Shown one piece after another: positions 223-21,732 of a DNA stretch of 64,000 nucleotides (its first letter is position 1; each line of letters begins with the position of its first letter). The translations under genes were made by a program, and so were the position numbers. The DNA comes from Longimicrobiales bacterium. GTDB lineage: Bacteria > Gemmatimonadota > Gemmatimonadetes > Longimicrobiales > Gaopeijiaceae. The notes beneath the pieces were generated by a model. It was not told where the DNA came from. It ran no database searches and worked only from the letters and a program-made list of their open reading frames with translations. The DNA is taken from the NCBI GenBank assembly GCA_965218295.1, contig CBDCKN010000009.1, forward strand, positions 192,001 through 256,000, read 5' to 3'.

Positions 223-898
223 GGGACCAGCAGCGCCGCTTTGTCCCGCTCCAGCCCTGCCTTCACATAGATCCCGTCCGCCCACACGTAGACGACCTCA
301 CGACCCTCCAGGCGACGCTGGCTCCATTCCTCGAACTCCGCCGTCCATCCCGCCCGCAGCCGCCGAATCGAAGACTTCGACAGCGGTGCCCCCTCGCCCA
401 GCAGGCCCCGCATCGCCAACTCGAAGTCTCCCTCCGCCAGTCCGTGCAGATACAGCTCCGGAAGCAGAGCGCCCAGCTCCTTCGTCCGCCTCGCGAACAA
501 CGGCAGCACGCGGCTCTCGAACCGCTCCTCAAGGCCTCGAACTCGAGGGCGTCGGAGTGTGATCGTGCCCGAGCTCATCGCCAGCCGCCTCGGCTTGCCG
601 TATCCGTTGCGGTAGCCCTCGGTCGCGTCCACCACCCTCCTGCGCTCTGACTTCTCTCGCCCTAGCAACTCCGTGACTTCCTCCTCCAAGATCTGTTGAA
701 TGAACTCCTGCGCCTTCTCCCGAACCACTTCTTCCAGAACTTCCCACACGGGCGTCCTGGACTCACCCTCGGGTCCCACCGTATTCTTCCTCACGAGGCG
801 TCGTTCCTTTCCCCCGGGCTGTCACCCGGAGTTCGCTGGTTATTACTCAGCGGAAAGGTACGTCGCCTCTCTTTTTACACACCCTTTGATCCTAGCTC
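223..898 (-). mobile_element. IS256-family element, left end plus 3'-truncated transposase (ORF 201..794)
   Basis: YRNGYG, RRPRVR and WADGIYVK motifs; terminal GAGCTAGGATCAAAGGGTGTGTAAAAAGAGAGGCGACGTACCTTT is shared with the copy starting at 14101; truncated after AALLV. Confidence 0.9.
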
Positions 899-13074: not shown

Positions 13075-14100
13075 ATGACGGGGTGGCGGAGTGGGGTCTG
13101 CGGCGCAGTGGCAGTTGTGGTGGCGTTCGCGCTGGGCGGATCGTTGTCCGGTGCCGGAGCCCAGACCGGTGGAAACACCGGACTCCTGGCCCGGAAGGCG
13201 AACCTGGAAGTGGAGGGGGTGTCGATCATCGATGCCCTCAGGCGTCTGCAGGCCCGCTCCGCCGTACCCATCGGCTTCAGCTCGGAGTCGATACCTCCGC
13301 GTCTCAGAGTGTTCTGCTCCTGCGTCGACAAGACGGTTCACGAAGCCCTGAGATCCTTCTCGAGGGTACCGGGCTGATCTTCACGGGTCGGCGCAACCAG
13401 ATCCTGGTCACACGACCCGGAGAACCCGACGTCCCAGTTCGAGACACGGGAGTCGTGGGGGGCTTCGTGCGTGAGGTCGAAACGGGCAACCCCATCGGTG
13501 CGGCCCGGGTTGAGCTGCGCGAGCTGCGTGTCGCCACGCTGACCGGAGCCGACGGTCGCTTCCTCATCCCCTCCGTCCCTCCGGGAGCCTACACCCTCGA
13601 CGTGGACGCCCTCGGGTTCCGCAGCGAAGGGGTCCGTCGCGCCGACGTCACGTTGGACCGTCCCACGATCGTGGATCTCCGGCTGGCGCGAGATCCCCTC
13701 GCTCTCGCCGAGATCGTCGTCGCCCCGGGCACGTTCGGGATCGGGGGCGACGAGGCCACGTTGATCCGGCAGACGCTCACCGAGGAGGAGATGCAAGCTC
13801 TGCCCCAACTCGGTGAAGACGTCTTCCGCATGATGGAGCGCATCCCTGGGTGTGGCAACGGGCGACATCTCGGCCAAGATGAACGTGCGCGGTGGCAACG
13901 ACGACGAGTTGCTGATCATGCTCGACGGCACCGAGCTCTTCGAGCCGTACCACATGAAGGATCTGGATGCGGTCATGGGGATTGTGGACGTTCAGACTCT
14001 GGGTGGTCTGGACCTCATCGCCGGAGGGCTCCCCACGGAGTACGGAGACTGTATGACGGGTCTGCTCGACATGCGGACGAAGCAGCCGATCGGAAACGGC
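13075..14100 (+). pseudogene. TonB-dependent receptor 5' part (signal, STN-like, carboxypeptidase-regulatory-like, plug start); frameshifts near 13350 and 13848; cut by IS
   Basis: Three overlapping frames give a continuous TBDR N-terminus that ends exactly at the IS left end. Confidence 0.8.
13421..14100 (+). repeat. Diverged direct repeat copy 1 (680 bp)
   Basis: Aligns colinearly with 15370..16048, from AGAACCCGACG to AACGGC. Confidence 0.95.
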
Positions 14101-15370
14101 GAGCTAGGATCAAAGGGTGTGTAAAAAGAGAGGCGACGTACCTTTGCGCTGAGATTTAAACCAGCGAGCCCGGGTGACAGCCCGGGGAAAGGAACGTCGC
14201 CTCATGAGAGAGGATATCGCGGGACCCCAGGGTGCGTCCAGCAGGCCGATGTGGGAGACGCTCGAGGGGATGGTTCGGGAGAAGGCGCAGGAGTTCATCC
14301 AACAGATCATGGAGGAGGAAGTCACGGAGTTGTTAGGCCGGGAGAAGTCAGAGCGCAGGAGTACGGTGGACTCGGCCGAGGGCTACCGCAACGGATACGG
14401 CAAGCTGAGGCGGTTGGCGATGAGCTCGGGCACGATCACACTCCGACGCCCTCGGGTTCGGGGCGTCGAGGAGCGGTTCGAGAGTCGGGTGCTGCCGTTG
14501 TTCGCGAGGCGGACGAAGGAGCTGGGCGCTCTGCTTCCGGAGCTGTATCTGCACGGACTGGCAGAGGGAGACTTCGAGCTGGCGATGCGGGGACTGCTAG
14601 GCGAGGGGGCACCGCTGTCGAAGTCTTCGATTCGGAGACTGCGGGCGGGATGGACGGCGGAGTTCGAGGAATGGAGCCAGCGTCGCCTGGAGGGCCGTGA
14701 GGTCGTCTACGTATGGGCGGACGGGATCTACGTGAAGGCAGGGCTCGAGCGGGACAAGGCGGCGCTACTGGTGGTGCTGGGCGTGATGCGAGACGGGACG
14801 AAGGAGGCGTTGGCCCTGAGATCGGGCTACCGAGAGTCGGTCGAGTCCTGGTCGGAGGTGTTGCGGGATCTGAAGGCACGCGGCATCGAGGCGCCCCGGC
14901 TTTTGATGGCGGACGGCAACGCGGCGATCTGGGGCGCAGTACGGCAGGTATGGCCTGAGGCGGGCGAGCAACGGTGCTGGAACCACAAGATGAGGAACGT
15001 GCTGGACCGGCTGCCTCAGCGGGAGCAGAGCGAGGCGAAGGATCTTCTCAGGGCCGTGGTCTACGCACCGAGCCGGGCCGAGGCGGTGAGGGCCCGTGAG
15101 GCGTTCGCCAGACGCTACAGGCCGTGGTATCCGAAAGCGGTGGACGTACTCGAGGACGACTGGGAGCGGATGGTGGCCTTCTACGACTTCCCCGAGGATC
15201 ACTGGAAGCATCTACGCACGACGAACGTGGTCGAGAGCCCGTTCGCTGCGGTACGGCTCAGGACGACGGCGGCGAAGCGGTTCAAGCGAGTGGAGAGCGC
15301 TACGGCGCTGATCTGGAAGTTACTCTTGGTGGCCGAGAAGCGGTTCCGAAGGCTCGACGCTCCTCACCTA
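14101..15370 (+). mobile_element. IS256-family element (transposase from 14204); no stop codon or right end
   Basis: DDE residues in WADGIY, MADGNA and TNVVES, plus QRCWNH; left end shared with 898(-); frame runs on into TBDR sequence. Confidence 0.93.
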
Positions 15371-16048
15371 GAACCCGACGCCCCAGTGCGAGACACGGAA
15401 GTCGTGGGGGGCTTCGTGCGTGAGGTCGAAACGGGCAACCCCATCGGCGCGGCCCGGGTTGAGCTGCGCGAGCTGCGTCTCGCTACGCTGACCGGCGCCG
15501 ACGGTCGCTTCCTCATCCCCTCCGTCCCTCCGGGAGGCTACACCCTCGACGTGAACGCCCTCGGGTTCCGCAGCGAAGGGCTCCGTCGCACTGAAGTCAC
15601 CCTAGACCGTCCCACGATTCTGGATGTCCGCCTGATGCGAGATCCCCTGGCGCTCGCCGAGATCGTCGTCGCCCCGGGTACGTTCGGGATCGGGGGCGAC
15701 GAGGCCACGTTGATGCGACAGACGCTCACACAGGAGGAGATGCAGGCCCTTCCTCAACTCGGCGAGGACGTCTTCCGTATGATGGAGCGCATCCCGGGTG
15801 TGGCGACCGGCGACATCTCGGCCAAGATGAACGTGCGCGGGGCTTACCCAGACGAATTGTTGATCCAGCTCGACGGCGTCGAGCTCTTCGAGCCGTACCA
15901 TATGAAGGATCTGGACGCGGTCATGGGGATTGTGGACGTTCAGACGCTGCGCGGTCTGAGCCTCATCGCCGGGGGGCTCCCCGCGGAATACGGAGACCGT
16001 ATGACTGGTCTGCTCGACATGCGGACGAAACAGCCGATCGGCAACGGC
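15370..16048 (+). repeat. Diverged direct repeat copy 2 (679 bp)
   Basis: Counterpart of 13421..14100 with many substitutions and one fewer base. Confidence 0.95.
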
Positions 16049-17719
16049 AGGCGCAACTCGATCGGGTTCAGCATCTCCAACGTCACGGCACGGAGTCAGG
16101 GGACTTTCAACGACGGTCGGGGGGGCTGGATGGTCTCGGGCAGGCGCGGGTTCCTGGACATCCTTTTGGCGCTAGCCCAGGACGGGAACGACGACAACGA
16201 GGATATCTCACCCCGCTACTTCGACGTGATGGGCAAGGTCGAGTTCCTGGCTGGTGCCCGCCATCGGTTCTCGGCGCACATACTTTACGCGGGTGACGAC
16301 CTCGACCTCAAGGCCGTCAGCGTGCTCAACAACAGTAACTCACAGGGCGAGTTGCTCACGGACTGGCGGAATGCGAACGCCTGGCTGAATTGGGGCTGGC
16401 AGCTCGCGCCCTCGCTGGATGCTTCGACGACGCTCTCCTTCGCCTCCCTTTCGCGAAACCGAAGCGGATTCGATTTGGAACCGGGCTCCTCGGAGATCGC
16501 GGATGCCATCACAGTGAGCGACAGGGCCGCATTCGATTTCCTGACCGCGAAACAGAACTGGCGCTGGGCCGCCGCCGACAGGGTCGTGCTCAAGTTCGGT
16601 GGCCAGCTTCGCTTCTCGAAGGCTCGGTACAACTATCGCAGCGAGATCGGCGAGGAGTTCGACTTAGGAGACGGCACGGTGGGAGTCGACGTCGACTCCG
16701 TCCGCGTCTCTCTCCGGCCGGAATCCACCGAGACCGGCGCCTATTTGGCGACCCGGCTCCAGCCCCACGATCGAGTGGTCCTCGAGGTTGGGGGCCGTTA
16801 CGACTACCGCAGCCACACGTCGGACTCCGACATCTCGCCGAGAGTGCAGGCGGCCCTTGAATTGACCACGAATACGACGCTGCGGGCGAGCTGGGGGGCT
16901 TACTACCAATCCCACGGATTGGATGAGCTGTCCGCCGTGGACGGGGACACGCTGTTCTTCCCCTCCGAACGTGCGAACCAGATTGCCGCGGGGATCGAGC
17001 ATGGCTTCGCGCGTGGGTGGCAGGTGAGGGCCGAGGTGTACCATCGCACCGTCTCCCATCCGCGGCCCCGCTATCTCAACGTCATACGAGAAATCATCCC
17101 GTTCCCCGAGGTCGGGAACGGCAGGGTCCGTTTCCTGCCTGAGCGGGGACGTGCCGACGGACTGGAGCTCACCCTAGCGGGACCACTTGGTAACCAATCC
17201 GACTGGACGGCGAGCTACGTGCTGGCGCGGGCCGAGGACAGGCTGGACGGTCGGTGGGTTCCGAGGACGCTCGATCAACGCCACACCTTCAACACGCGCT
17301 GGCACTACCGGCCGAACAGTGCCTGGGAGTTCTCCGCAGGTTGGCAGTACCACACGGGGTGGCCCAGCACCCCGATGGAGTTTCAGGTCGACACGCTGGG
17401 GACTTTCCCCGTCGACGACCCCCCTCCACCCGGGTCGCGATCTTGCAACCCCGACTTTTGCCTCCAACTGCTGGTCAACGAGCGGCCCGGCCCGATCAAT
17501 GCCGAACGACTGCCGGCCTACCATCGCATGGATCTCCGTGTTACCCGGACGTTCCAGGTGGGCGGGGGCACGTTGAGCGCCTTCCTGGACGTCTTCAACC
17601 TCTACAATCGGGAGAACCTGCGATCCTACGACTACAAGGTCGAGCTTCCGTCGGGAAGGGTGATCCCGAACATCGGTGAGACGCTCCTGCCCTCGTTCGG
17701 CTTGACCTGGGAGTTCTGA
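15371..17719 (+). CDS. TonB-dependent receptor body, in frame with the upstream transposase (ORF 14174..17719)
   Basis: Plug (MERIPGV, NVRG), barrel strands, FLDVFNLYNREN and C-terminal LTWEF. Confidence 0.85.
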   Translation, partial: EPDAPVRDTEVVGGFVREVETGNPIGAARVELRELRLATLTGADGRFLIPSVPPGGYTLDVNALGFRSEGLRRTEVTLDRPTILDVRLMRDPLALAEIVVAPGTFGIGGDEATLMRQTLTQEEMQALPQLGEDVFRMMERIPGVATGDISAKMNVRGAYPDELLIQLDGVELFEPYHMKDLDAVMGIVDVQTLRGLSLIAGGLPAEYGDRMTGLLDMRTKQPIGNGRRNSIGFSISNVTARSQGTFNDGRGGWMVSGRRGFLDILLALAQDGNDDNEDISPRYFDVMGKVEFLAGARHRFSAHILYAGDDLDLKAVSVLNNSNSQGELLTDWRNANAWLNWGWQLAPSLDASTTLSFASLSRNRSGFDLEPGSSEIADAITVSDRAAFDFLTAKQNWRWAAADRVVLKFGGQLRFSKARYNYRSEIGEEFDLGDGTVGVDVDSVRVSLRPESTETGAYLATRLQPHDRVVLEVGGRYDYRSHTSDSDISPRVQAALELTTNTTLRASWGAYYQSHGLDELSAVDGDTLFFPSERANQIAAGIEHGFARGWQVRAEVYHRTVSHPRPRYLNVIREIIPFPEVGNGRVRFLPERGRADGLELTLAGPLGNQSDWTASYVLARAEDRLDGRWVPRTLDQRHTFNTRWHYRPNSAWEFSAGWQYHTGWPSTPMEFQVDTLGTFPVDDPPPPGSRSCNPDFCLQLLVNERPGPINAERLPAYHRMDLRVTRTFQVGGGTLSAFLDVFNLYNRENLRSYDYKVELPSGRVIPNIGETLLPSFGLTWEF

Positions 17720-17780
17720 CCGGGACCGGCCGGAGGCGTGGGTGCTGTCGGCGGGAGCGGGTCCTGAGTGAGGGACGGGA

Positions 17781-17927
17781 CCCGTCCCCCCTGTCACATT
17801 CGGGGCTCCTCATTCGTTTCCATGCACGATGAGAACTCCTAACCAGGACTTAGATACGGAGTACCCAATAAAATCGACAGGTTGTGTCCTTGCGGTGGTG
17901 GTTGCAGTGCTGGTGGGGTGCGGTGAC
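17781..17927 (+). repeat. Promoter-leader-lipoprotein signal cassette, copy 1
   Basis: CCCGTCCCCCCTGTCACATTCGGGGCTCCTCATTCGTTTC...GATGAGAACTCCTA...ACGGAGTACCCAAT...GCGGTGGTG...TGCGGTGAC shared with two downstream copies. Confidence 0.9.
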
Positions 17928-18357
17928 AACAACCCGATCGGCTCCGAGTTGGGACCCGTCTTTGACTCGACCGGCCCCGGGATGGATGGCTTGGGTGGGC
18001 AACGGGCGCTCTGGGAGGCCCAGGGCCTCGGACTACACGTACGGTGTACGGCGAGTTTGCCTTTGCCCCTTCAGGGAGGAAGTCCGAGTCACCGTGGTGG
18101 ACGGAGCCGTGGCTGGAGCCACCGACCTCGTGACGGGAGACGTGTTGGAGCCCAACGAGGTGCAATGGTACCTGACGATCGACGGCCTCTTCGATCTCTT
18201 GCAGGAGGCGTACGATCGGAACGCTCACGAGGTCCAGGTGGAGTACGATGCGAGCCGTGGCTACCCGACCCGGATCTTCATCGACTATTTGGAGATGGTC
18301 CTGGACGAAGAGGTGAGCTTCACGCTGTTGGGTGACGTGCGGGCCTTGGGAGACTGA
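17829..18357 (+). CDS. Lipoprotein with DUF6174-like domain; frameshift near 18029
   Basis: Lipobox LVGC; RALWEAQGL continues as DYTYGVRRVCLCP...TIDGLFDLL...YDASRGYPTRIFID in another frame. Confidence 0.75.
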
Positions 18358-18410
18358 CGCTCATCACCGAGCCCGACCATGAACCTCCGTTTTGAACGAG
18401 GGTGTAGATG

Positions 18411-18436
18411 GGAACCTCCGCGTCGATCCCAACGTC
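18411..18436 (+). promoter_or_regulatory. Candidate ECF promoter GGAACC-N16-CGTC
   Basis: Canonical ECF AAC/CGT elements immediately upstream of the 18448 ORF. Confidence 0.4.
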
Positions 18437-18447
18437 AGAACGGGTGA

Positions 18448-19023
18448 GTGATGACTGACATGCTATTTTTGCCTTCCCTGCCGTACTGGCTTGCCCTGAT
18501 CTTCTGGTCTGCCATTGTTGTGGGCCTCGTGGCCTCCGGCCTCGGACTCGTCCGGCAACGCGCATCCCTGCTGATCGGCGGCGCGATCTTGGTGTTACCG
18601 GCCTCGCTGTATCTGACCGCGACGCCGCGGTTTCAGTACGTCGGATGGGTGCCCGTGGCGTGCCTGCTCTTGGCCGCATACGCCGTGCGGCGGGACAAGG
18701 TGTGGATCGGCGGGCTATTGGTCGCTGCCGGGGTCATATTCTGGAGCGTGGTGGCCTCGATGCTCTTCTTCCCGATCCTGCTCCATGTGCTGGGGGCGGG
18801 CGCAACCATCGGGCTCGTGGCCGCACGTCACCTCAGCTGGAAGGTGGCGGTGTACGTCCCAGTCGGGATCGTCGGTGCGTTCGTTGGCGCCTTGCTGAGT
18901 TTTGGCGATGCGCCGTTGCTCATGCGGTACCCCTATCTCAACCCGTGGACCTTGTCCGTCCTGGCGGCGGTCCTCCTCGTGACGGCTCTTGGGGTTGCGG
19001 ACAGGAAGGTATTCGGCCGCTGA
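18448..19023 (+). CDS. Hypothetical multi-pass membrane protein
   Basis: About 7 hydrophobic segments; GIVGAFVG motif near the C-terminus. Confidence 0.75.
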   Translation: MMTDMLFLPSLPYWLALIFWSAIVVGLVASGLGLVRQRASLLIGGAILVLPASLYLTATPRFQYVGWVPVACLLLAAYAVRRDKVWIGGLLVAAGVIFWSVVASMLFFPILLHVLGAGATIGLVAARHLSWKVAVYVPVGIVGAFVGALLSFGDAPLLMRYPYLNPWTLSVLAAVLLVTALGVADRKVFGR

Positions 19024-19164
19024 CGGCTCGCCCTCGTGGCTTGGAGGTCCGTTAACGACGTGCTGATCAGGAGCTTCCAGGGGGGAGGGTCTCGGCTCGC
19101 TCAAGCAGGGTGCCGGACTCGGAAAGGGCCTTTGAAATCCTTCTATGGGGCCAGCGAATCTTCA

Positions 19165-19365
19165 GGGCGGCCGTTTCACTGCCGACCCTGTCCCGTCCCC
19201 CCTGTCACATTCGGGGCCCTCATTCGTTTCTAGGCTCGATGAGAGTTCCTAGCCAGACTGAAAGTATGGAATACCCAATGAAATTGAGAGATTTTGTACT
19301 TACGGTGTTGGATTTTGTGCTTGCGGTGGTGGCTGTGGTGCTGGCGGGGTGCGGCGACGACCCGA
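19165..19365 (+). repeat. Promoter-leader-lipoprotein signal cassette, copy 2
   Basis: Same leader; 21-bp imperfect tandem duplication in the signal peptide (DFVLTVL/DFVLAVV). Confidence 0.9.
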
Positions 19366-19721
19366 CGTTTCCCAGCGAACTCCAGGGCGGAGTACTCGCG
19401 ACGTTCCAGGTCGAGGCAGAGCAGTTCAAGCTCTGGGTGACCAACGAGAGCACGATCCAGCAGATCCTGGATCTGCAGGCGGGCACCAGCACCGCGTCGA
19501 TTCCGAACGGGCCAGTCTTGGAAGGTGCTGGACCGGCCGCATACAACAGCCCCTACTCCTGGCACCTCGACGCGGTCGAAACCGAGATGGCCGACGCCAC
19601 CATCGAGCTCTGCGACGGGCTCCCGAGTTTCGTTGAGGAGAACCTGGATTCGTGGCTGGACGAAGTCGGACAGTACTGCCCCTGGTCGGCACAGTTGCTC
19701 AGCGTGGAGGACTACCGCTGA
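19278..19721 (+). CDS. Lipoprotein, BP74-related domain
   Basis: Lipobox LAGC; YNSPYSWHLD, TIELCDGLPSFVEE and YCPWSA motifs. Confidence 0.75.
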   Translation: MKLRDFVLTVLDFVLAVVAVVLAGCGDDPTFPSELQGGVLATFQVEAEQFKLWVTNESTIQQILDLQAGTSTASIPNGPVLEGAGPAAYNSPYSWHLDAVETEMADATIELCDGLPSFVEENLDSWLDEVGQYCPWSAQLLSVEDYR

Positions 19722-19810
19722 CCGAAGCAGGACACCGAACCGAAGGAAACGGGCGACGAAGGTAGTCCCATCCAACCATTCCAACGCCCGAGCGGCCATC
19801 CCATCATTCG

Positions 19811-19990
19811 GGGTGGCCGTTTCACTGCCGACCCTGCCCCGTCCCCCTGTCACATTCGGGGCTCCTCATTCGTTTCCATGGGCGATGAGAACTCCTAGCC
19901 GGGACTGAAGTACGGAGTAACCAATGAGATCAGGTTGTGTCTTCGCGGTGGTGGCCGCGGTGGTAGTGGCGTGCGGTGACGGCCCGACCG
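19811..19990 (+). repeat. Promoter-leader-lipoprotein signal cassette, copy 3
   Basis: Same leader, sharing an extra upstream GGCCGTTTCACTGCCGACCCTG with copy 2. Confidence 0.9.
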
Positions 19991-20277
19991 GCCCTGAGAT
20001 GGGAACCGTCGAAGTGGAGGTGACTGCGTCAGGGGAAAGCATCGACATAGGCGGACTGGTCGTCAGTCTGGACGATGGCGCCCAGGTCGAGGACCTCGAC
20101 GCCTCAGGCAGCGTCACCTTGGAGGTGGAGGCCGGCGATCACACCGTGGAGCTGACCGATATCGCGTCGAACTGCACGGTGGATGGCGACAACCCCGTTT
20201 CCGTGACGGTGACGGCGGAAGAGACCTCCACCGTGAGCTTCGCGCTTACCTGCGCGCCTATCCCTCCTCCAACCTAG
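19924..20277 (+). CDS. Small lipoprotein with beta-sandwich (PEGA/Ig-like) domain
   Basis: Lipobox VVAC-GDGPTGP; AGDHTVEL..IASNCTV..NPVSVTV...FALTC. Confidence 0.8.
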   Translation: MRSGCVFAVVAAVVVACGDGPTGPEMGTVEVEVTASGESIDIGGLVVSLDDGAQVEDLDASGSVTLEVEAGDHTVELTDIASNCTVDGDNPVSVTVTAEETSTVSFALTCAPIPPPT

Positions 20278-20306
20278 CTCCAAGACGGCGAGCCGGAGGT
20301 GGCGGG

Positions 20307-20550
20307 TCAGCTACCCCGCCCGCCACCTCCGTCCGCCCGGCTGACGGCGCAAAGCTCCACCGCCTCTCCCTTGTCCCAGAGCGGCACGGGCCCCAATCGC
20401 TGCACAGCATACTCCGGCGGGAGGGCAAGGCACTCCATGAGCTCCGCCGGCACCACCCCGTACTCCTTTGGGAAGCGCTCGCGGTGGGCGTGGATCTGCT
20501 CCTCGATGAGGAAGAACACCCGGATGCAGCTCGCCTCCTCGAGCGTGAAG
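20307..20550 (-). pseudogene. Adenylate/guanylate cyclase remnant with internal deletion
   Basis: CIRVFF...FPKEYGVVP is joined directly to ELMECLALPPEYAVQRLGPVPLWDKGEAVEL; the catalytic GLHxG...GDxxN segment is absent. Confidence 0.45.
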
Positions 20551-20765
20551 GAGGTCGGTGAGCACGTGCCGGGCCTTCTTGGACATGCGACGTTCGTACG
20601 TATACTCACGATATAAAGATACGTATACATCTCCGATGAGGAACTCGGAAGCACGATGGGAAGTATCCGCCCGGCCTGGCTCGATCCCATCGCCACGTTT
20701 CGGTTGGTGTGTCTGGTGCGGGTCCTGCTGAGCTGGTTTACGGGTTGCGGAAGCGGGAGGGACCC

Positions 20766-21371
20766 TCAGGGAACGCGCAAGCGAAGCCCCAGGCGGACGC
20801 GCAACACGGCCGGGTCTTCGATCAATTGAAGGCTCGAGGCGGCTGTCCGGGCGAAGTCCAGCTCGCCCAACTTTAAGACATCCCCTCCGAGGTCGAGGGT
20901 CACAGTCGGGGCGACGTCTAGCCGCAGGCCCACTCCACCTCCGAACACTCCCGCCCAAGTCACCCTCTCGACCAGGGTGGAGTTCGTTCGGCTCTGCACA
21001 TTCGCGGCTACGCCCAACAGAGGGCGCGCGTACAGCGTGACGGCCGAGAGCGACACGTAAACCTCGGGGCCGAGCCCAAAGATCCATATCGTGTTGCCGG
21101 CGGTCTCGTTGTCGTTGGTGGTGCTGGCCAATGGAATCAGCATCCCATCCGCTCGAACCGAGAGGTTCCGCGCCACACCGTGTGATGCGGTGAGGTCGAC
21201 CCCGAAGCCGGAATCGAGGAAGTCGCTCGCGCTTCCGACCATCAGGCTCGCGCTGGCCGAGGCACCCACCGACCAGCCAGGGGCCGACTGTGCGGACGCC
21301 GGCGAGCCCGTGAGGGCAGCGGCGACCAGGATGCTCGAGAGCGGCAGGCACGCTCGTTGGCGTTTGGGCAC
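20766..21371 (-). CDS. Outer-membrane beta-barrel protein
   Basis: Signal peptide ending ASA-Q; alternating beta-strand pattern (FGLGPEV, FGGGVGLRL). Confidence 0.7.
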   Translation of the reverse strand: MPKRQRACLPLSSILVAAALTGSPASAQSAPGWSVGASASASLMVGSASDFLDSGFGVDLTASHGVARNLSVRADGMLIPLASTTNDNETAGNTIWIFGLGPEVYVSLSAVTLYARPLLGVAANVQSRTNSTLVERVTWAGVFGGGVGLRLDVAPTVTLDLGGDVLKLGELDFARTAASSLQLIEDPAVLRVRLGLRLRVP

Positions 21372-21705
21372 TTTAGCACCTCCGAATCGGGATTCGCAGG
21401 CTCACGCTTGATACACGACGACCCCGAGCTCATGCGACATGGCCAGGCTGTCGATTCCCACAGCGGGACGATGAGTGAGCCGGCCTGGTCGTCGGCTATC
21501 ATCACCGTAGAAACGCGTGAAATCGACTCGAGTACCAATCGGGTGACGCACTACCTCACAGAAACCTCTCCCGCCGCCAGCTCAACCAGTGTCGCGTGCA
21601 CGATCGTCAGCGTTATCACGACGGCATACGCGAGATGTCAGACGACCGCGGGCGACAGCGTCAGTCTACGCATGGCGAAGGCTAGTTGTGGGAGTCTGCC
21701 TAGGT

Positions 21706-21732
21706 AACGCCTCGGGTGGGGAGTTTGTGACA
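21706..21732 (-). promoter_or_regulatory. Solo TGTCACA-N16-CGTT ECF-type promoter motif
   Basis: Minus strand reads TGTCACA AACTCCCCACCCGAGG CGTT; same boxes and spacing as in the cassettes but an unrelated spacer. Confidence 0.55.

Follow-up and report, generated by a model that had tools for sequence, protein, structure and literature searches.

How does one and the same gene start come to stand in front of three unrelated proteins? The question is raised by three neighbouring genes at positions 17781–20277 of a 64,000-nt stretch of DNA (referred to below as the window) from an uncultured Longimicrobiales bacterium (phylum Gemmatimonadota) of the family Gaopeijiaceae (GenBank assembly GCA_965218295.1, contig CBDCKN010000009.1, positions 192,001 to 256,000). 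Each of them opens with a near-identical segment of 155–205 bp, here termed the leader, that is composed of a promoter motif, a 5′ untranslated region (UTR), a ribosome-binding site (RBS) and a lipobox signal, and each then continues into a different body: DUF6174, BP74_N or an immunoglobulin (Ig)-like domain. The answer that we consider probable is that a few sporadic 5′-end gene fusions took place within one predicted regulon of an extracytoplasmic function (ECF) sigma factor, and that inheritance, transfer and decay followed. Three genomes of one genus are referred to throughout, i.e., the source genome (G000; 3.57 Mb in 17 contigs, 91% complete), a closed genome (G001) and a third congener (G002; 95% complete).

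An initial, sequence-only reading of the window proposed a unit of ~150–200 bp at three sites, and this was borne out, with limits at 17781, 19149 and 19794. Copy 1 (17781–17960, + strand) contains the promoter motif, 5′ UTR, RBS, a short signal with the lipobox Cys at 17919–17921 and ~14 codons matching the mature start of Ig-like genes; its predicted ECF promoter, TGTCACA-N16-CGTT, lies at 17792–17818 (+). Copy 2 (19149–19366, +) consists of an upstream extension, the promoter motif (19203–19228), UTR, RBS and a long signal with the lipobox Cys at 19350–19352, and copy 3 (19794 to ~20010; up to the lipobox Cys, 19794–19974, +) has an upstream extension, the motif at 19848–19874, UTR, RBS and a short signal with its Cys at 19972–19974. 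The copy 1 leader aligns with scores of 201.5 to copy 2 and 221 to copy 3, whereas 100 random 350-nt stretches of the window gave a maximum of 75 and a mean of 58.6. Over promoter and UTR the four full copies of G000 (the fourth is described below) are 84–90% identical, and their common architecture is TGTCACA-N16-CGTT (N15 in copy 2), ~50 nt to the start codon and GGAG or GGAA ahead of it. The signal peptides, judged by eye, have a basic N-terminus, a hydrophobic stretch and the lipobox LVGC, LAGC or VVAC, so that a lipoprotein signal is predicted. Borders of the unit are less regular. An extra ~40–55 nt upstream is common to copies 2 and 3 and has no counterpart in copy 1; in copy 2 (start ATG at 19278) the signal is longer by 21–24 nt and the spacer is 15 nt, against 16 elsewhere; and both the left ends and the leader-body junction offsets are unequal between copies. 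The similarity was first read as ending just past the lipobox, which holds for copy 2 (it stops at Cys-Gly-Asp-Asp-Pro) but not for copy 1, that continues to match the Ig genes for ~14 codons beyond the Cys. A structured RNA in the leader UTR was considered and dropped, as no common fold was found (z of +1.8, −2.0 and +1.9). At the left end of copy 1 there is a short inverted repeat (17757–17791), near a break of a block that is inverted in G001, and sequencing runs X5 and X8 are without 17 nt at 17757–17791.

The three bodies are unrelated. The chimeric leader-DUF6174 gene (17868–18357, +; body at 17964–18357, +) is broken in G000 and has an intact 163-aa ortholog in G001; the leader-BP74_N gene (19278–19721, +) encodes 147 aa and is intact, as is the Ig-like single-domain lipoprotein gene (19924–20277, +; 117 aa), which belongs to the likely donor family. 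Pfam matches are DUF6174 (E 2.9e-29) and BP74_N (4.3e-26), and for the Ig-like body DUF5949 (1.6e-5, above the cut-off) with a weak Big_7. Of the body types proposed earlier, the DUF6174-, BP74- and Ig-like ones therefore stand, and PEGA does not, since no match to it was obtained at E≤0.1. NCBIfam returned no match for the three bodies. Profiles of the mature parts, built from 103, 25 and 16 sequences, gave HMM-HMM (hidden Markov model) probabilities of 0.41, 0.22 and 0.08%, i.e., all below 0.5%, so the homology of bodies that could have undone the reading was not found. Full-length profiles align over the leader alone, and together with the different Pfam families this upholds the view that the locus is not ordinary tandem paralogy. 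The predicted structures of BP74 (pLDDT 88.6) and of the intact DUF6174 ortholog (79.6) have a different layout. For the BP74 model nothing exceeded Z 3.7 among 48,161 chains, which is uninformative. The best hit of the DUF6174 ortholog model (L023:1471–1962, −) reached Z 7.5 (root-mean-square deviation 4.0, 120 aligned), and its top PDB rows are almost all LolA/LppX/LprG/RseB-like, below the reliable level of the tool; the weak resemblance of the modelled fold to LolA/LppX/RseB may serve as a lead only for this uncharacterised family.

For DUF6174 both parents of the fusion are at hand. All three congeners (G000, G001 and G002) possess a native DUF6174 gene whose UTR and signal are of another kind, and from 17964 onward copy 1 is identical to the G000 allele (contig C16) at 348 of 396 nt (88%). 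The 5′ part of copy 1 matches an Ig gene on contig C12 in 156 of 199 columns, up to the ELGPV/ELGTV codons. Since copy 1 follows the Ig gene through ELGPV/ELGTV and then native DUF6174, the linker is doubled. An Ig gene is shown to be the immediate donor of the copy 1 start. In four proteins (P0187–P0189 and P0191) the copy 1 type leader continues directly into an Ig body; in P0161 an Ig-type remnant, GPQLGTV, precedes the DUF6174 body. In a tree of 39 mature DUF6174 rows (37 of 41 proteins and two loci of genome G061; P0149, P0159, P0160 and P0161 were dropped as short or signal-less) the 18 leader-led rows lie on one side of a branch and the 21 native ones on the other, that is one change; support of this branch is 91/89 and it is not starred. 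A single origin of leader-led DUF6174 is not rejected by these sequences. There is also a shorter second form of the junction (P0142/P0219), which may be a later deletion. Lesions of copy 1 in G000 comprise ATA at the start position (17868–17870) and a 2-nt frameshift near 18029. Far from the gene, G001 holds an isolated 3′ DUF6174 fragment with the downstream flank of copy 1 (G001:C1:3228508–3231636, L025).

The second fusion is visible at the level of proteins. Two nearest BP74 clusters contribute 17 listed proteins (15 of 20 and 2 of 2), of which 6 carry a native signal (MNHRY...) and 8 the shared leader, the remaining 3 being truncated or mis-started. Their mature parts are identical to copy 2 at 111–123 of 123 residues (111–122 in the six native-signal proteins), and the signal switches at the lipobox. 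A native-signal allele with a body 121–122/123 identical to copy 2 thus coexists with the leader-led form. Among 120 listed BP74 homologues only P0015 has the shared signal (score 81 against ≤40 for others). The reciprocal product, a native BP74 signal on another body, is absent among the G000 matches listed. This pattern points to a recent replacement of the native BP74 start.

Are the junctions real, and are they kept? Contigs of run X1, possibly the source run, match the window exactly at 17796–18197, 19188–19872 and 19851–20622; they span all three leader-body junctions and reproduce the ATA and the frameshift of copy 1, as had been read from the window. Run X3, from another study, covers 18169–19125, 19347–19872 and 19851–20623, i.e., the join of copies 2 and 3 and the copy 3 junction, and the tandem of copies 2 and 3 is also present in runs X5, X9 and X13. 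The junctions are not an assembly mosaic. In runs X5 and X8, ATG is found at 17870 and there are two extra bases at 18029, so that other strains carry copy 1 intact, unlike G000, where it is broken, in line with the earlier suggestion that copies decay. A BLAST search of G000 with the leader brought further copies to light, namely a fourth full one at C12:147219 (−), in front of an Ig-like body 74% identical to that of copy 3, and a promoter-only fragment of 42 nt at C12:40489 (−). The same four leader-body pairs are found in G001, at about 1.026, 1.254, 1.681 and 1.754 Mb, with none of the cargo swaps once anticipated at orthologous loci; there the leader-led DUF6174 gene is intact, and an insertion sequence (IS) splits the BP74 gene. 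In G002 there is no leader, no BP74 and nothing that matches the Ig query. Homology between G000 and G001 at the four genes often breaks off at two points, the −35 region and the stop codon, and the copy 1 block is inverted, with one break adjoining the leader. Leaderless neighbour genes are equally mosaic and break at gene borders as often.

Beyond the genus the leader is rare. It was detected in 4 of 314 family genomes (BLAST, with 2 candidates scored per genome). Two of the four, G061 and G071, belong to other genera and have one copy each, on DUF6174 and 90% identical to copy 1; that of G071 is broken. The sigma gene of G071 is 68% identical to that of G000, so the 90% identity of its chimera supports transfer. 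Transfer into G061 makes a weaker case by identity alone because its sigma gene is 88% identical to that of G000 (its native DUF6174 is 77% identical). A leader profile run against 1.84 billion representatives gave 10 matches, and the 7 strong ones are all DUF6174- or Ig-derived; it missed the leader-led BP74 forms and is not a sensitive test of absence. Exact leader patterns occurred among genome contigs in G001 only, and in no JGI metagenome or viral contig. At loose contig ends of four runs only the DUF6174 linker stands behind the lipobox, among the rows listed, and no fourth cargo family was found, which leaves three families in all. A crude G000 screen for shared starts that span the start codon (3,203 crudely called genes) returned 88 families, 69 of them with homologous bodies; the other 19 are copies of IS or integrated elements, short duplicates, one dispersed repeat, one upstream duplication and this leader family, so that no second leader family of this kind was seen in the crude genome-wide screen. 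A ~139-nt dispersed repeat, MITE- or REP-like (miniature inverted-repeat transposable element; repetitive extragenic palindrome), has its best copies 94–99% identical and lies at C7:~406–545 (+) and at least 20 other gene starts, upstream of unrelated housekeeping genes.

The promoter motif offers a view of the regulation that these genes may share. Strict TGTCACA-N16-CGT occurs 8 times in G000, ahead of three leader copies, native DUF6174, two more lipoprotein genes, one secreted-protein gene and one ECF sigma gene; its relaxed form was counted 26 times, where shuffled sequence gave 15.7. In G001 and G061 the motif-led genes further include serpin-like and other small lipoproteins (named by eye). 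No sigma-70 promoter was found in 17600–20800. The sigma gene in question (G000 C9:568011–568640, +, with its neighbour) encodes 167 aa and is followed by a zf-HC2 (zinc-finger) anti-sigma gene. The motif is upstream of 20 of its 28 ortholog loci (L110–L137, from 27 of the 41 genomes matched; 4/28 in control stretches) and of 1 of the 10 sigma genes in G000, and TGTCAC-N17-CGT upstream of the sigma/anti-sigma locus is conserved across the order. In G002 this sigma is absent at E≤1e-40. A motif in front of its own ECF sigma is the pattern of autoregulation, and on this sequence evidence sigma C9:568140 is the likely cognate factor of a predicted ECF regulon of small lipoproteins in Longimicrobiales. 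The ECF41 promoter is given as TGTCACA-n16-CGTC (PMC3426412), and TGTCAC is also listed at least for ECF103, ECF250 and ECF288 (PMC7826278). The −35 element and the spacing are the same here, with −10 CGTT instead of CGTC. Despite the motif match, the local sigma was ruled out as ECF41 by its length of 167 aa without the ~120-aa SnoaL extension that defines this group, and by its zf-HC2 neighbour. At window ~21550–21732 (−) a further motif-led lipoprotein gene is shortened by an internal deletion; it is intact with 161 aa in G001 (L067) and interrupted in G002 (L066).

Sharing of a leader over unrelated lipoproteins is, as a principle, already known. The erp genes of Borrelia burgdorferi (OspE, OspF and Elp, with the upstream homology box) are described as having common 5′ DNA and leader peptide and unrelated mature proteins (PMC12018966; PMC9060444). 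Here, likewise, promoter-region DNA (with a predicted promoter) and a predicted lipoprotein signal are common to genes with unrelated mature proteins. The erp genes are on cp32 prophages, at least 17 in one strain, and serve host interaction, whereas the present ones are four chromosomal genes of an environmental-type lineage, with both parental alleles still found. The erp genes reportedly arose by fusion. The likeness is functional and a sequence relation is not expected: no OspE, OspF or Elp mature domain was found, and Pfam gives DUF6174, BP74_N and DUF5949 only. Neither were phage genes seen among the scanned neighbours (a Pfam scan, not a prophage search), nor a leader match in viral contigs. 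In the vpma genes of Mycoplasma agalactiae and the vsp genes of M. bovis, which code for lipoproteins and lie in clusters, the 5′ UTR and the signal peptide are conserved and precede mature parts that differ; vpma has a single promoter and an identical 21-bp core, and its genes are inverted by the Xer1 recombinase encoded next to them (PMC2268961). Conservation of UTR and signal over differing mature parts is the common feature; the difference is that here each copy has a promoter motif, and that there is no linked tyrosine recombinase and no fixed crossover. No tyrosine recombinase (PF00589) was found in the window, the nearest of 28 matches in G000 being ~25 kb away. In G001 one of four leader copies has a PF00589 match ~3 kb away, among 48, and no consistent link to tyrosine recombinases emerges (the search did not extend to serine recombinases and transposases). 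Crossovers at one identical core were not seen; leader-body offsets, left ends and rearrangement joints in the runs all differ. The locus works like erp and lacks the marks of a vpma/vsp-type shufflon. Tyrosine-recombinase matches (28 in G000, 48 in G001, 55 in G002) and several repeated integrated elements make up a heavy mobile-DNA load, and the large IS families of G000 have 41, 19 and 15 copies.

The data show the replacement of two native starts by one leader, with inheritance, spread and decay of the products. The mechanism that we hold to be probable is that rare, non-site-specific recombination would have copied the start of an Ig-like lipoprotein gene onto DUF6174 and BP74 lipoprotein genes and replaced their own. 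The linker C-G-D-D-P-x-G-P, found in many lipoproteins of this lineage, would supply a short stretch of homology, and joins would survive only at the lipobox or at this linker, the one place where both the signal and the folded domain are spared. The ECF sigma at C9:568140, kept in check by the zinc-finger anti-sigma, would drive transcription, and the products would be lipidated at Cys, anchored in the envelope and part of an envelope-stress regulon. As the recipients already were lipoproteins and native DUF6174 already has the same promoter motif, the leader need not bring new export or regulation. Once fused, the genes would fare like any other gene-sized piece of a genome rich in IS, being moved, clustered, occasionally re-paired via the leader and often broken. 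Random internal deletions and stray joins are met in the same genes (P0012, P0240 and P0241). Several observations weigh against so simple an account. Long-signal DUF6174 forms (P0141, P0148 and P0202; runs X5, X8 and X9) and the P0142/P0219 junction show more shuffling than one frozen event would leave. Among Ig-domain relatives in the rest of the family, 0 of 22 loci have the motif, so the leader can be followed back to the immediate donor of copy 1, but not to an ultimate owner. Which way the BP74 swap went is argued from parsimony, native BP74 being known at the protein level. The motif at ≤1 mismatch precedes 7 of 22 BP74 ortholog loci outside G000 and G001 (some of them cut short), and the swap may have given BP74 a new regulation.

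What else could have produced the pattern? Ongoing gene conversion under selection, by which leader copies exchange, the lipoprotein set is kept at one expression level and address, and pairs turn over, is in our opinion rather improbable. It would account for long and short signals that both occur on DUF6174 bodies, for the copy 1 type leader on a copy 3 type Ig body, for the P0202 long insert, which resembles inserts of other long leaders, and for the coexistence of nearly identical native and leader-led BP74 alleles. However, orthologous promoter and UTR segments of G000 and G001 are 93–99% identical and paralogous ones 84–90%, and therefore there is no homogenisation; long and short forms can arise by deletion between internal direct repeats of the signal (family D2); the copy 1 type Ig allele may simply be the donor; and copies are often broken (copy 1 in G000, BP74 in G001, the G071 copy). 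A related proposal, to which we give an equally small chance, makes the leader a standing recombination anchor: lipoprotein genes of the ECF regulon would repeatedly swap starts at the C-G-D-D-P linker, native and leader-led alleles would segregate in populations, and promoter-to-stop units would cluster and cross genus borders. Much less credit goes to a dedicated plug-in system, in which the leader would serve some recombinase or mobile element as its fixed capture or switch site, as in vpma/vsp. The scattered positions of the four genes in G001, the ends of homology at −35 region and stop codon, the inverted block with its break beside the leader, and the G071 chimera, more similar than the sigma gene, would all suit such a system; against it are the differing junctions and left ends, no linked or consistent tyrosine recombinase, a promoter motif of each copy (and so no single expression site), equally mosaic leaderless neighbours, pairs inherited in a second species, no fourth cargo in the searches made, and the lack of leader matches among viral contigs and JGI metagenomes. 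Of the portable capture system imagined in the sequence-only reading, what survives is that the leader replaced the native starts of two unrelated lipoprotein genes and that leader variants sit on more than one body in other strains; portability and machinery are not supported. Finally, paralogs diverged beyond recognition in their mature parts, or a mosaic of the assembly, would explain the tandem position of three genes only, and they are hardly credible in the face of different Pfam families, the HMM-HMM values, the different predicted folds of DUF6174 and BP74, the X1 and X3 contigs across the junctions, and all four pairs in G001.

The fusions are embedded in a variable block with several other features. 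A leaderless membrane-protein gene without Pfam or NCBIfam match (18451–19023, +) accompanies copy 1 in G001 and G061. Directly left of copy 2 lies a dispersed short repeat (19082–19140, +), with 7 G000 matches at ≤7 mismatches and more in G002. Between copies 2 and 3 there is a GC-rich hairpin followed by TTT (19792–19825, +; z −3.4), which is likely a terminator, though the terminator scan did not call it; a REP-like family was rejected for this hairpin, as the genome holds one close match. The right border of the block is formed by a second dispersed repeat (20574–20650, −; 19 G000 matches at ≤5 mismatches), the start of a small antitoxin-like gene remnant (label by eye). The repeated part is ~55 nt with a TACGTA palindrome and sharp ends, often flanks variable blocks and, at C3:132078 (−), is joined in frame to a 460-aa secreted-type open reading frame (ORF); possibly it is a second scattered promoter fragment. 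To the left, at window 14174–17719 (+), an IS256-family transposase runs in frame into a TonB-dependent receptor (a 1181-aa ORF), and the 5′ part of the receptor is duplicated upstream at 13083–14159, behind an ECF sigma and a FecR gene.

No printed description of the locus or of the regulon was found in the accessible literature, which included few subscription papers. What the locus provides is an unusually clean natural record of 5′-end gene fusion, for which public data contain the donor allele, the native recipients and the chimeras alike. With BP74, whose mature protein stays unchanged, one can measure what a leader swap does to expression and localisation. A by-product is the predicted ECF regulon of Longimicrobiales, with its likely cognate sigma and anti-sigma. 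Should the leader prove to be a standing recombination anchor, these bacteria would possess a recombinase-free means of giving envelope proteins another expression strength and signal peptide, and here donor, recipient and product can all still be found.

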